Under the pieces are notes generated by a model. That model had not been told where the DNA came from. It saw only the letters and a program-made list of their open reading frames with translations, and did not search any database. A stretch of 64,000 nucleotides of DNA from Escherichia coli (GTDB taxonomy: Bacteria; Pseudomonadota; Gammaproteobacteria; Enterobacterales; Enterobacteriaceae), in NCBI RefSeq assembly GCF_024502345.1, contig NZ_JALDNN010000001.1, one strand, 5' to 3'. The translations under genes were made by a program, and so were the position numbers. Shown piece by piece: positions 21,563-28,845 of the stretch. How positions within the stretch are numbered: the stretch's first letter is position 1; every line of letters begins with the position of its first letter.

Positions 21563-24064
21563 TTATTTTCGTAATAACCTCAGGCCATTTGCCACAACCA
21601 GAAGACTGGCACCAACATCAGCAAATACAGCCATCCACATAGTTCCCATTCCCATGAGCGTGAGTACAAGGAATACGGCTTTAATACCTAGAGCGAGGCT
21701 GATATTTTGCACGAGTAAGCTGTACGTTTGTCGGGATAATTTTACAAAGGCTGGGATTTTACGCAGGTCATCATCCATTAAGGCTACATCTGCAGTTTCA
21801 ATCGCCGTATCAGTACCCATTGCGCCCATAGCAAAACCGATATCAGCTGCAGCCAGAGCCGGTGCATCATTGATACCATCACCAACCATCCCAGTGATTC
21901 CAATCCGTGAATGCTCTTCAACTGCACGATGTTTATCTTCTGGCAATTGATTCCCTCGAGCCTCATCGATTCCAACCTGAGATGCGATTGCTTTAGCTGT
22001 ATGTGGGTTATCACCAGTCAGCATAATAGTTTTAACGCCAAGTTCATGAAGTTGTTCAATCGCTTCACGGCTGCTGTTTTTAACAGTATCAGCAACAGCG
22101 AACAACCCAAGCACTTGCTTACCATCATTGAGTAAAATAACTGTTTTACCCTGGCTTTCCAGCCTTTGTACTGTTGCTTTAATCTCTGATGGACAATTAA
22201 AGTGTTCTTCAGTCAAACGCAGGTTACCAAGGTAAAAATCCTTACCTGTAATCGCGCCATGCACACCTCGCCCAACAATCGCTTCAAAGCTGTCAACATC
22301 CTGCTTTTTCAAATCAGCAGAAGCATTCACAATTGCCAGTGAAACAGGGTGATCAGAGTAACTAGCGAGACTAGCTGCAGTAGTACGAACTTCACGCTCG
22401 CTCCACCCATTGAATACCATTACGTCGGTTTGTACTGGTTTCCCATAGGTAATAGTTCCTGTTTTATCCAGCGCAAGGGCTTTTAGCTTACGTCCCTGCT
22501 CAAGATAAACACCGCCTTTAATGAGAATCCCTTTGCGAGCAGCTGCAGTAAGTCCACTAACAATCGTTACTGGCGTAGAAATAACCAGGGCACATGGACA
22601 CGCAATGACAAGCATAACTAAAGCTTTATAGATCCACTCCTGCCATGTTCCTGCCCCAAACAATGGTGGCAATACAGCAACCGCAACAGCAATACCCATA
22701 ACGACGGGGGTATAAATCTGGGAAAAGCGGTCAACAAAACGTTGTGTAGCTGCTTTGGCGCCTTGCGCCTGCTCAACGGCATGAATGATGCGAGCAAGGG
22801 TTGTATTATTTGCAGCTGCAGTGACTTTATATTCAAAAGAGCCTGACTGATTTATTGTTCCAGCAAATACAGCATCGCCCGCAATTTTATCGACAGGCAT
22901 ACTTTCACCTGTAATTGGAGCTTGGTTAATGGTGGTTTGGCCTTTGACGATTTCTCCGTCGAGACCAATTCGTTCACCTGGTTTTACCCTGACAATACTG
23001 CCCGGTTGTACGCTACTGGCGTCAACTTCCTGCCATGTTCCATCAGCTTGTTGGACCATTGCAGTTTCAGGAGTCAGGTTCATCAGGGAACCTATTGCAT
23101 TTCTGGCTCTATCAAGTGATTTGGCTTCTATCAGCTCGGCAATGGTGAATAACACCATAACCATCGCCGCTTCTGGCCACTGCCCAAGGACCAAAGCCCC
23201 AGTAACGGCAATACTCATTAGTGCATTGATATTCAAGTTGCCATTGCGAATCGAAATCCAACCTTTTTTGTAGGTTGTCAGACCACAAGAAAGCACTGCT
23301 ATCAAAGCCAACCCAGCTTCTAGCCAGTCAGGCATATCAGCCCAGTGCATCACTTCGGCTGCAAGAGCAGCTACGCCAGCAAGAGCTAATGGCCACCAGG
23401 GCTTTTTTTTCTCCTGGGTATTTTTCTTGCCGCTAGTATTATCAGAGACTTCTGGCGCGAATCCCAACGAGCGAATTGCAGCCATGATAGCTTCAAGCGA
23501 ATCCGGTGTATGGGTTACAGTCAAAACACGCTGCATCAGGTTGAAATCAAGCTCTTTAACAGCGCTCATTCCACCCAGTTTCTTTTTGATAAGATTTTCT
23601 TCAACAGGACAATCCATCTGCATAATGCGAATTTCTGTCCGTAATCCACCAGCCACAACCTGCGAGCCCCCTAGGCTACTCAATTGTTCTGGAGCAGCGG
23701 AGCAACAATCCCCCTCATGGCCGTGATCGTGGCCTTCATGAGAATGCTCTTGCGCGGCATGAGCATGGTTACATCCCTTATGATTATGCTCATCATGCGA
23801 ATGCCCTTCGCCGCCATGGCTATGGGCATCATGATTATGGCCTTCATGGTTATGGCCTTCATGGTTATGACCTTCATGGGAATGATCATCACTGCATTTC
23901 TTGTGATTATGAGCCTGCTGATCATGTGCATGATCATTTGCTTTATGTGATTCACCAGTATTCTTAACCCGGAGTCCTGTCCCTAAATTGAACGTTTCAC
24001 AGCAACTAGCCGCTTCGTCTCCTGCAGGGTTTTTGCTATTTTTTACACCACCACTCATTTTCAT
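21563..24064 (-). CDS. cadA: heavy-metal translocating P1B-type ATPase (Zn/Cd/Pb-type, CadA/ZntA-like) with His-rich N-terminus
   Basis: 833 aa; N-terminal HEGHNHEGHNHEGHNH repeats; CPC membrane motif (IACPCALVIS); phosphorylation motif DKTGT; [10 protein letters not shown] hinge. Confidence 0.9.
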   Translation of the reverse strand: MKMSGGVKNSKNPAGDEAASCCETFNLGTGLRVKNTGESHKANDHAHDQQAHNHKKCSDDHSHEGHNHEGHNHEGHNHDAHSHGGEGHSHDEHNHKGCNHAHAAQEHSHEGHDHGHEGDCCSAAPEQLSSLGGSQVVAGGLRTEIRIMQMDCPVEENLIKKKLGGMSAVKELDFNLMQRVLTVTHTPDSLEAIMAAIRSLGFAPEVSDNTSGKKNTQEKKKPWWPLALAGVAALAAEVMHWADMPDWLEAGLALIAVLSCGLTTYKKGWISIRNGNLNINALMSIAVTGALVLGQWPEAAMVMVLFTIAELIEAKSLDRARNAIGSLMNLTPETAMVQQADGTWQEVDASSVQPGSIVRVKPGERIGLDGEIVKGQTTINQAPITGESMPVDKIAGDAVFAGTINQSGSFEYKVTAAANNTTLARIIHAVEQAQGAKAATQRFVDRFSQIYTPVVMGIAVAVAVLPPLFGAGTWQEWIYKALVMLVIACPCALVISTPVTIVSGLTAAARKGILIKGGVYLEQGRKLKALALDKTGTITYGKPVQTDVMVFNGWSEREVRTTAASLASYSDHPVSLAIVNASADLKKQDVDSFEAIVGRGVHGAITGKDFYLGNLRLTEEHFNCPSEIKATVQRLESQGKTVILLNDGKQVLGLFAVADTVKNSSREAIEQLHELGVKTIMLTGDNPHTAKAIASQVGIDEARGNQLPEDKHRAVEEHSRIGITGMVGDGINDAPALAAADIGFAMGAMGTDTAIETADVALMDDDLRKIPAFVKLSRQTYSLLVQNISLALGIKAVFLVLTLMGMGTMWMAVFADVGASLLVVANGLRLLRK

Positions 24065-24090
24065 TGCCTCATCTGTTAACTATACTGACG

Positions 24091-24121
24091 ATTAAAGACC
24101 CTAATCTAACTAGAGGGTCAA
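24091..24121 (-). promoter_or_regulatory. MerR-type promoter/operator (divergent region between the ATPase gene and cadR)
   Basis: Minus-strand TTGACC (-35), 19-bp spacer containing the dyad GACCCT...AGGGTC, then TTTAAT (-10); the 19-bp spacer with internal dyad is the MerR-family signature. Confidence 0.6.
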
Positions 24122-24139
24122 GCGCATAAGGGGGGAGGC

Positions 24140-24592
24140 ATGAAAATTGGTGAATTGGCCCGTAAGGCGGATTGTCCGGTGGAAACTATTCGGTACTATG
24201 AGAAAGAAGGATTACTTCAGGCTCCATTAAGAGATATTGAAAATAACTATCGCCGTTACAACAATACTCATCTGGAAAAGTTATTATTTATCCGACGCTG
24301 CCGCTCTCTTGATATGACCCATGAGGAAATACGTGCATTGCTACTGGCAATGAATAATCACGGTAAAGACTGTGGCCCCATTGATGCAATAATCAGTGCC
24401 CATCTCACTCATGTTCAGCATCGTATTAAAGAATTAATAGCCCTGGAAATACAACTCAAAGAACTTAATAACTATTGCAGCTCAGACCGGAGCGTGGACG
24501 AATGCGGGATAGTACAGAAATTGACTGCTGATGAAGAGAATGGTGATCTTCCTTTAACCGTACCAACTGACCACTTGGGGGGTGTGCATTAG
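24140..24592 (+). CDS. cadR: MerR-family metal-responsive regulator, CadR/PbrR-like
   Basis: MKIGELARKADCPVETIRYYEKEGLL...; divergent from the P-type ATPase gene. Confidence 0.8.
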   Translation: MKIGELARKADCPVETIRYYEKEGLLQAPLRDIENNYRRYNNTHLEKLLFIRRCRSLDMTHEEIRALLLAMNNHGKDCGPIDAIISAHLTHVQHRIKELIALEIQLKELNNYCSSDRSVDECGIVQKLTADEENGDLPLTVPTDHLGGVH

Positions 24593-27655: not shown

Positions 27656-27691
27656 GATGTATTTCTCATCGTTATGGTCAGATAAAGAACA

Positions 27692-27722
27692 ACCTTAAGG
27701 CTTACCATCGTGGGAAGGTCAA
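27692..27722 (-). promoter_or_regulatory. putative CueR-controlled copA promoter
   Basis: Minus-strand TTGACC followed by a spacer with partial dyad (CTTACC...GGGAAG) resembling the E. coli copA operator as I recall it; approximate. Confidence 0.35.
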
Positions 27723-27840
27723 GCGCATTATTTTGAACATGCCGATGCCGTGGAAGGAATGGATATAAAAACCCTTTACATGAACACATATTCATATGTT
27801 ATATTGAAGGCATCATGTATAACCAACCGCTTGAGGCCCT

Positions 27841-28845
27841 ATGTCACAATCACATGATCACGAGCATGACCATACTCCAGCAGTAACCAGTGCAAACGAG
27901 CGTAAAGTCCTTATCTCCTTCCTCATGATATTCACATTTATGGTGGTCGAAGCTGTTGGAGGGATACTTTCTGGCTCATTAGCATTGCTGGCAGATGCAG
28001 GCCACATGCTTACAGATGCAGTAGCTTTGGCGCTGGCTTATGCGGCATTCCGTTTTGGCCGTCGAGCTGCTGATAGCAAACGAACCTTTGGATATTTGCG
28101 ATTTGAAGTCATCGCGGGATTCTTTAATGCCCTGACACTCTTCGCTATTGTGGCGTGGATTGCATATGAGGCATGGGAAAGGTTACAAGCTCCACCAATT
28201 ATACTGGCAGGCCCAATGCTGATCGTTGCCATTGCAGGATTGTTGGTCAACATATTGGTATTATGGATCATGACCCGTGGTGAGACCGATCATGTTAATG
28301 TCAAAGGTGCTATTTTACATGTGATGGGTGATCTATTGGGTTCTGTTGGCGCTATTGTCGCCGCTATTGTCATTTACTACACGGGCTGGACACCGATTGA
28401 CCCAATACTTTCCGTTCTTGTCGCAGCACTGGTTTTACGTAGTGCCTGGAAATTATTAGCAAAATCGCTGCACATCCTGTTAGAAGGAGCGCCTGAAGAT
28501 GCCTCCCCAGACAAGGTGGAACAGAGACTAATCAGTTCTGTTAAGGGCTTAGCAGCCGTAAGTCATATTCATGTCTGGCAAATAACCTCAGGTCGGACGA
28601 TGGCAACACTGGAAGTAAGAGCCAAGGAAGATGTGGACGTAAAAGACGTTGTGAAGCTTGTAAAACAAGAACTTTATGAGCAGTTCAAAATAGAACATGC
28701 AACTGTGGGAATCGACTGGAATTACGATCAAAACGATAATACATGCAGCCTTTCACCGACAAAACTGCGTAACGAACACGAACACGAACACGAACACGAA
28801 CACGGAAAAAAGCATAACCATTCTAGTCCAGGCCACAAACATTAA
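27841..28845 (+). CDS. czcD: cation diffusion facilitator (CzcD/ZitB-like) divalent metal efflux protein
   Basis: 334 aa; six TM helices; His-rich N-terminus (HDHEHDH) and C-terminus (EHEHEHEHEH...HNH). Confidence 0.85.
   Translation: MSQSHDHEHDHTPAVTSANERKVLISFLMIFTFMVVEAVGGILSGSLALLADAGHMLTDAVALALAYAAFRFGRRAADSKRTFGYLRFEVIAGFFNALTLFAIVAWIAYEAWERLQAPPIILAGPMLIVAIAGLLVNILVLWIMTRGETDHVNVKGAILHVMGDLLGSVGAIVAAIVIYYTGWTPIDPILSVLVAALVLRSAWKLLAKSLHILLEGAPEDASPDKVEQRLISSVKGLAAVSHIHVWQITSGRTMATLEVRAKEDVDVKDVVKLVKQELYEQFKIEHATVGIDWNYDQNDNTCSLSPTKLRNEHEHEHEHEHGKKHNHSSPGHKH
28774..28803 (+). repeat. hexanucleotide repeat (GAACAC)x5 inside czcD, encoding (EH)5
   Basis: Read directly from the sequence. 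Confidence 0.9.

Follow-up and report, generated by a model that had tools for sequence, protein, structure and literature searches.

A mobile metal-efflux island in Escherichia coli carries two coding repeats whose copy number varies among near-identical plasmids and genomes. The island spans positions 21563-28845 of a 64,000-nucleotide stretch of contig NZ_JALDNN010000001.1 (hereafter the window) and comprises six genes, including a downstream arsR/smtB-type gene. One repeat, a hexanucleotide (GAACAC)n, encodes Glu-His (EH) pairs in the cation diffusion facilitator (CDF) gene czcD; the other, with 15-bp units, encodes the pentapeptide HEGHN in the N-terminus of a zntA/cadA-like P-type ATPase gene. 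Both probably vary through replication slippage in unstructured, cytosolic, histidine-rich tails, with changes that are mostly near-neutral, and the runs of eight adenines (A8) in the two P-type ATPase genes are, on the same reading, incidental. A sequence-only reading of the region had described both in-frame repeats as slippage-prone, a proposal that would fall if repeat lengths were invariant across many related genomes; neither repeat is invariant.

The 7.9-kb block carrying the island is 99.7-100% identical in 20 near-identical database records, 17 of them plasmids and 3 E. coli records. The plasmid hosts are Klebsiella, Citrobacter, Raoultella and E. coli, and all four plasmid records that were opened are of IncHI1B/IncFIB type. 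On this background, loci separated by 0-2 single-nucleotide polymorphisms (SNPs) in 7.9 kb differ by whole repeat units. Locus L001 shows 0 mismatches to the window over 7901 bp, and its sole difference is a gain of 6 bp, one hexamer unit; locus L008, also with 0 mismatches, differs solely by the loss of 15 bp, one HEGHN unit. An alignment of ten loci (7.76 kb) contains 9 SNP columns, all small indels fall inside the two tracts, and the sole other indel is an insertion sequence (IS) insertion. Every length change in either tract is an exact multiple of its unit. Both tracts have the properties of in-frame coding simple sequence repeats (SSRs) or variable-number tandem repeats (VNTRs), namely units that are multiples of three, polymorphic copy number and a location outside folded domains.

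The czcD array lies exactly where it had been reported (Table 1), and Tandem Repeats Finder describes it as 5.5 copies with a 100% match. The encoded EH run forms a C-terminal tail past the folded domains: the Pfam CDF C-terminal domain ends at residue 291, and solved ZnT structures align to the product only as far as residue 299. Given the amino-acid sequence and the codon usage of the gene, five perfect hexamers are improbable under synonymous codon shuffling (P=0.0055), which identifies (GAACAC)5 as a repeat at the DNA level. Within the window allele, n=5 is the majority state, and n=3, 4, 6 and 7 were also seen. The n=6 array occurs in NZ_CP131698, NZ_CP021699, the E. coli chromosome NZ_CP063503 and one C. 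freundii genome; two of these records are finished plasmids and one is a finished chromosome, and the six-copy product is listed as a RefSeq protein in its own right. One E. coli genome carries n=7 and two Enterobacter hormaechei genomes carry n=3, while n=4 was seen only in two error-prone Logan contigs and is held with lower confidence. (EH)6 is found both with and without SNPs at 27828 and 28622, that is, on at least two SNP backgrounds, which indicates that the czcD tract has changed repeatedly.

The whole block also exists as a second, diverged allele, circulating in Enterobacter, Klebsiella, Citrobacter and Salmonella, with nucleotide identities of 86% in the zntA-like gene, 88% in copA and 92% in czcD. 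The (GAACAC) array of this allele is likewise polymorphic (n=5, 4 and 2). Scans with the patterns flanking the repeat returned 0 matches in viral contigs and 1 in metagenome contigs and added only the n=2 allele. A role of the czcD repeat in regulating the downstream arsR-type gene was considered and rejected: the repeat stands downstream of the sole promoter-like match, and copy number would thus leave promoter spacing unchanged.

The near-perfect 15-bp HEGHN repeats of the zntA-like gene were also recovered, as an array at 23815..23879 (Tandem Repeats Finder: 4.3 copies, 88% matches) that contains three clean units. Three units are the majority state; n=2 was found on 22 contigs, n=5 in one genome and n=8 on six contigs. 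The n=8 array (L005) consists of seven GGT-type units and a terminal unit, whereas the n=5 array (L006) combines the terminal unit with one GGT-type and three GGC-type units. Since different units were multiplied in the two loci, the HEGHN expansions are separate events.

The array is embedded in a 142-residue histidine-rich extension that precedes the single HMA domain of the pump. In alignment with Shigella sonnei ZntA (structure 4UMV), only residues 117-831 are covered, which leaves the HEGHN run outside. Comparison of the two alleles shows that the extension evolves faster than the core, with 49% identity and 27 gap columns in the former versus 92% and no gaps in the 689-residue core. In the inspected homologues, whose cores are 64-83% identical, the extension ranges from 0 to ~155 residues and is His-rich in some and Cys-rich in others. 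The extension of the diverged allele remains His-rich (17% His, versus 18% in the window allele) without a tandem DNA repeat. No length variants were found in its zntA-like protein: all seven distinct full-length members listed have 844 residues and differ by point substitutions only, and one of them is present on 537 contigs.

Other features of this extension were seen in passing. A motif (G/D/N)(D/S)CC(S/T/A)x(A/I)P lies near residues ~114-125 (~23685..23720), just N-terminal of the HMA domain, and is shared by most of the homologues inspected, even where the extension is unalignable and whether it is His-rich or Cys-rich. Two homologues, P0142 (Paraburkholderia fungorum) and P0155 (Burkholderia stabilis), contain unrelated internal duplications in a His-rich extension; in P0142 a block of ~70 residues is repeated twice. 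Repeat-driven growth of the tail thus seems to recur in the ZntA-like family. Split zntA calls in the JGI locus L016 were considered as frameshifts and discarded as a gene-calling artefact, the DNA being identical to that of the intact locus L012.

These observations point to a simple route by which the alleles could arise. With units of 6 and 15 bp, slipped-strand mispairing during replication would add or remove whole units and leave the frame intact, and the predicted products would range from 2-7 EH pairs in CzcD and from 2-8 HEGHN units in the ZntA-like pump. The tails of both proteins presumably face the cytosol, the site of metal capture, as in established CDF and P1B topology. They may bind Zn or Cd and feed or buffer the transport site. 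Most copy-number changes are probably near-neutral, each moving the local metal-binding capacity only slightly. We infer slippage, rather than selection on tail length alone, from the perfection of the hexamer at the DNA level and from the invariance of the repeat-free diverged extension. The dominance of a single allele combination fits mostly neutral turnover.

Tandem repeats are prone to mis-assembly, and the n=4 EH state of the main lineage comes solely from error-prone Logan contigs, so assembly or sequencing error had to be weighed as the source of the length differences. The arrays, however, measure 12-120 bp, below typical read length; the six-copy EH array is present in finished replicons and in a protein record of its own; the two- and eight-unit HEGHN arrays recur on contigs from different samples; and all changes are exact unit multiples. 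Because the alleles stand in finished plasmids and in many independent assemblies, with arrays shorter than the reads, an artefactual origin is extremely improbable.

The A8 runs that had been reported in both P-type ATPase genes are present, and a further run, absent from the earlier account, occupies the 5' end of copA (Table 1); the 64-kb window holds eight A8/T8 runs in total. The accompanying suggestion that these homopolymers are potential on/off switches was not supported by comparison. Isolate-derived loci, comprising the 20 near-identical records and the NCBI isolate contigs fetched, were all A8 at all three runs wherever examined, including the diverged allele with its 86-88% identical pump genes. 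Synonymous codon shuffling gave 1 observed run versus 1.80 expected in the zntA-like gene and 2 versus 0.48 in copA (P=0.058), or 3 versus 2.3 combined, with no enrichment. In copA homologues of 64-73% amino-acid identity, the junction that links the second HMA domain to the first transmembrane helix reads GAG AAG AAG, GAG AAA AAG, GCA AGG AAG or A6 at the DNA level, so that the peptide EKK(D/E) is kept while the A-run is not. The runs would then be by-products of lysine-rich segments (KK or KKK beside the membrane and at the N-terminus) combined with a preference for AAA codons, and on these comparisons they are incidental rather than switches.

Phase variation, in which the A8 runs act as contingency tracts and frequent one-base changes turn both P-type ATPase genes off and on, would draw support from position, as a one-base change would truncate each pump just past its metal-binding domains, and from the copA excess over expectation. 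We therefore predicted the truncated proteins expected from A7 or A9 at the two junction runs and looked them up exactly in the protein collection. All four predicted frameshift products are present in public assemblies, carried by 21 contigs (Logan, ENA and JGI). Aligned to the reference, most of these contigs have deletions at several homopolymers each, among them C6 at 21476, G6 at 24130 and 24577, A6 at 25345, C5 at 26563 and both T8 runs. The A7 contigs number 18 distinct ones, L031 and L043 being one contig, and 15 of the 18 also have deletions at other homopolymers; A7 or A9 in the zntA-like gene was seen only in contigs with errors at further homopolymers, and no A7/A9 contig derives from the isolate genomes of NCBI. 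Such multi-homopolymer deletions indicate sequencing error through homopolymer under-calling rather than biology, and the frameshift products were accordingly set aside as support for switching. All of the finished plasmids, E. coli genomes and isolate contigs from NCBI that were examined are A8, truncations within the protein clusters trace to IS insertions or contig ends, and the combined run count is unremarkable. Moreover, A/T runs of eight are generally shorter than classical phase-variation lengths in mismatch-repair-proficient Enterobacteriaceae. Taken together, switching at the A8 runs is very unlikely.

Variation at copA junctions was also met outside the island. Homologues on Acinetobacter plasmids have A6 at the same EKKD junction, and two records, L023 (A. 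gerneri pC-SY-46) and L024 (A. baumannii CP101888.1), show A5 at about position 733, with copA frameshifted and unannotated. This A6-to-A5 change at the homologous site would favor phase variation; L023 has other frameshifts nearby and is probably a low-quality record, while in L024 the A5 is the only frameshift within the 1.3 kb read. An 809-residue CopA (P0037) starting at Met23 is annotated in several records. It was considered as a product of a shift at the 5' A8 and rejected, as it has three separate causes: L029 carries an IS insertion, the metagenome scaffold L028 lacks 22 bp that include the run, and L030 (Logan contig SRR27597919) has A9. Two unrelated truncations, P0029 (zntA-like, 697 residues) and P0045 (copA, 304 residues), share the foreign end EGANKSLI, which suggests that the same IS end landed in both pump genes in different strains.

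Two further homopolymers flank or lie within the island. A C6 run at 21476..21481, at the 5' end of an AraC-type regulator gene adjoining the zntA-like gene, is C7 in the finished plasmid NZ_CP050068 (L003) and in L005, giving a gene of 408 rather than 405 nt; unlike the A8 runs, it varies between good-quality records. The ribosome-binding region of the cadR-type gene (AAGGGGGGAGGCATG) contains a G6 run at 24130..24135; it is G6 in all finished records but shorter in many error-prone contigs.

The junction runs were also weighed as sites of programmed recoding, at which transcriptional slippage or -1 ribosomal frameshifting would yield soluble, chaperone-like metal-binding proteins comparable to CopA(Z), the product of a programmed -1 frameshift in E. 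coli copA (PMC5009743). Two of the three runs lie just past the last HMA domain, alternative frames stop within 2-21 codons, and both junction runs are canonical slippery heptamers, that of the zntA-like gene being the dnaX-type A AAA AAG (codon 218, 23401..23411). The junction run checked for conservation, that of copA, is nevertheless not conserved at the DNA level in homologues, the 70 nt downstream contain no significant RNA structure at either site (z = -0.58 and -0.61), the E. coli-type CCCAAAG is absent from the end of the first metal-binding domain, and run counts match codon usage. Lacking DNA conservation, downstream structure and CCCAAAG in copA, programmed frameshifting or transcriptional slippage at A8 was rejected and is highly improbable. 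Another dnaX-type heptamer, A AAA AAG, stands in frame at czcD codon 323 (28806..28812), directly after the EH repeat.

Several points weigh against replication slippage with near-neutral outcome and incidental A8 runs. The near-neutrality of copy-number change is an assumption, and sequence alone does not separate slippage from unequal recombination. The three contigs with A7 in copA only (L045, L046 and L049) and the A9 contig L030 are not demonstrably errors, and their status is undecided. The (GAACAC) array is perfect in both alleles despite ~8% divergence in czcD; homogenization by slippage fits this, and constraint fits it too. Finally, the HEGHN-expanded loci are also EH-rich relative to the majority, with eight HEGHN units accompanied by seven EH pairs and five by six. 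Joint expansion could hint at selection. L006, however, shares a SNP with an (EH)6 lineage, so its EH count may be inherited, and co-expansion was not retained as evidence of selection, since it concerns two lineages only, one of them with an EH count that is probably inherited.

The last two points also count in favor of an adaptive account. In such an account the number of His-containing units is itself selected, and slippage provides a fast, reversible means of adjusting how the pumps capture, select or sense metal in different metal environments. Both tracts are genuine hotspots of mutation at which several alleles recur, and His-rich segments affect transport in related proteins; the perfect hexamer in two czcD alleles and the joint expansion would fit as well. 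The distribution of alleles argues otherwise: the combination of three HEGHN units and five EH pairs dominates, with at least 1000 contigs versus 22, 6 and 1 for n=2, 8 and 5 HEGHN, the diverged allele dispenses with the HEGHN repeat entirely, no metadata tie copy number to metal exposure, and the co-expansion reduces to the two lineages above. Adaptive tuning is therefore unlikely. In its more specific form, the tracts would be evolvable knobs whose His/Glu unit number measurably shifts metal capture, selectivity or sensing and is selected in metal-rich niches. This is quite improbable; if true, it would explain the perfect hexamer of the diverged alleles and the extra EH pairs of the HEGHN-expanded lineages. 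A functional effect of copy number is nonetheless plausible, by analogy with related transporters.

The genes and tracts of the island are listed in Table 1. The transporters were assigned by profile scores and motifs. The zntA-like product scores 507.9 against the P1B-2 profile TIGR01512 (cut-off 313.5), contains the ACPCALV and LDKTGTIT motifs and has its HMA domain at residues 143-200 (score 32.9 versus 24.8), with DCPVEE in place of CxxC. It scores below the cut-offs for the E. coli ZntA orthologue (NF033775, 558 versus 1240; PRK11033, 628 versus 1005) and is thus a member of the P1B-2 family but not an orthologue of E. coli ZntA. The CopA-type product scores 586.4 against the P1B-1 profile TIGR01511 (cut-off 397), and its translation shows two MTCASC HMA domains and ACPCAMG; it stays short of the E. 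coli CopA equivalog cut-off (739 versus 1316). For the czcD product, the CDF profile TIGR01297 gives 276.9 (cut-off 82.35) and PF01545 (Cation_efflux) 150.6 (cut-off 26.6) over residues 23-214, and the HxxxD motifs of TM2 and TM5 are read in the translation as GHMLTD and LHVMGD. Its ZT_dimer score is slightly below cut-off (25.7 versus 26.7), and the ZitB equivalog cut-off is not reached (331 versus 408). The cadR-type gene product matches TIGR02047 with E=2.3e-43 and 147.3 bits, slightly below the cut-off of 151.45.

Table 1. Genes, repeats and homopolymer runs of the metal-efflux island (window coordinates)
Feature	Position	Strand	Description
zntA/cadA-like P1B-2 (Zn/Cd/Pb-type) P-type ATPase gene	21563..24058	-	831 amino acids from the annotated start; open reading frame, with identical loci annotated in RefSeq
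Three 15-bp tandem units (CATGAAGGYCATAAY), in-frame VNTR	23834..23878	-	encode (HEGHN)3, residues 61-75 of 831
A8 (coding strand; GAG AAA AAA AAG, EKKK 216-219), zntA-like	23403..23410	-	between HMA and first transmembrane helix
CadR/PbrR-type MerR regulator gene	24140..24592	+	divergent from zntA-like gene; TIGR02047; annotated Cd(II)/Pb(II)-responsive regulator
cueR, Cu(I)-responsive MerR regulator gene	24682..25146	-	TIGR02044, 167.4 versus cut-off 147.4; annotation
copA/actP-like P1B-1 Cu(I) P-type ATPase gene	25160..27655	-	831 amino acids, two CxxC HMA domains
A8 (coding strand; GAA AAA AAA GAT, EKKD 158-161), copA	27176..27183	-	between second HMA and first transmembrane helix
Third A8 (coding strand; CAA AAA AAA CAG), copA codons 4-6	27638..27645	-	absent from the sequence-only reading
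czcD/zitB-like CDF gene	27841..28845	+	334 amino acids; TIGR01297, PF01545
Short H/D/E run HDHEHDH, czcD N-terminus	27853..27873	+	6 bp longer in the diverged allele (HDHEHEHEH)
(GAACAC)5 in-frame hexanucleotide SSR	28774..28803	+	encodes EHEHEHEHEH, czcD residues 312-321

Both pump promoters resemble MerR-type promoters (24088..24115 and 27685..27716), and in each a -35-like GCGCTTGACC element on the gene strand precedes an imperfect inverted repeat, which is ACCCT...AGGGT upstream of the zntA-like gene and the CueR-box-like ACCTTCC...GGTAAG upstream of copA. E. coli NZ_CP063503 (L004) has the entire island on its chromosome; there an IS3-family element of 1.25 kb interrupts copA at the equivalent of window position ~26987 and leaves a 227-residue 'copper ion binding protein' that corresponds to both HMA domains. 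Downstream of the island, the window contains an AAA_13 ATPase gene (30167..32305), a group II intron reverse transcriptase/maturase gene (34000..35523) and a transposase gene with HTH_38 and rve (integrase-core) domains (36674..37825). In loci L010 and L044 the AAA_13 gene is followed by a pair resembling a cyclic-oligonucleotide-based antiphage signalling system (CBASS), namely Cap15 and a CD-NTase.

The island moves with large megaplasmids that confer multidrug resistance in Klebsiella, Enterobacter, Citrobacter and E. coli, and both tracts offer fine-scale typing markers for these plasmids. The natural series, which covers 2-8 HEGHN units and 2-7 EH pairs while the background stays the same, is a ready-made experiment on tail length and pump function, a question addressed so far mainly through whole-tail deletions. 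The homopolymer results carry a practical message as well: apparent phase variants in bulk public assemblies were here mostly sequencing error, and the multi-homopolymer signature serves as a simple error flag. The open-access literature searched yielded general background only and no published account of the repeat polymorphism or allelic series of this island.

In-frame terminal SSRs and His-rich tails of metal transporters are both known phenomena. In prokaryotes, SSRs cluster toward the ends of proteins (Lin & Kussell 2012, PMC3315296), and the island repeats resemble them in having units that are multiples of three, in lying near the N- or C-terminus outside folded regions and in being indel hotspots among close strains; they differ in encoding metal ligands in two transporters of one mobile island. 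Bacterial proteins of metal-ion transport show a 21.6-fold enrichment of His-rich low-complexity regions (Ntountoumi et al. 2019, PMC6821194), and deletion of the His-rich N-terminus of Bxa1 from Oscillatoria brevis abolishes metal tolerance (PMC2681177). Like these proteins and the tail of Pseudomonas CadA/ZntA (PMC10393844), the ZntA-like pump combines a cytosolic His/Asp/Glu-rich extension on a P1B-type pump with a conserved core and a hypervariable extension, but here a perfect tandem DNA repeat, for which copy-number alleles are documented, makes up part of the extension. The czcD product shares with CzcD/ZitB and with ZnT/MTP transporters, whose His-loops recruit or sense zinc (PMC10932157), the CDF fold, the HxxxD motifs and His-rich cytosolic segments of the zinc-recruiting or -sensing kind; its His-rich segment, however, is a C-terminal tail with a short N-terminal run rather than the TM4-TM5 loop.

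The A8 runs can be set beside two known systems. They share with the contingency loci of Neisseria, Haemophilus, Campylobacter and Helicobacter the placement of mononucleotide runs in coding sequence, where a one-base change would truncate the product, but they are only eight bases long, invariant in isolates, not enriched and not conserved at the DNA level. With CopA(Z) of E. coli they have in common a slippery A-rich site after the metal-binding domain of a Cu pump and an early stop in the alternative frame, whereas the island copA has neither CCCAAAG after its first metal-binding domain nor downstream structure nor DNA-level conservation of the site.

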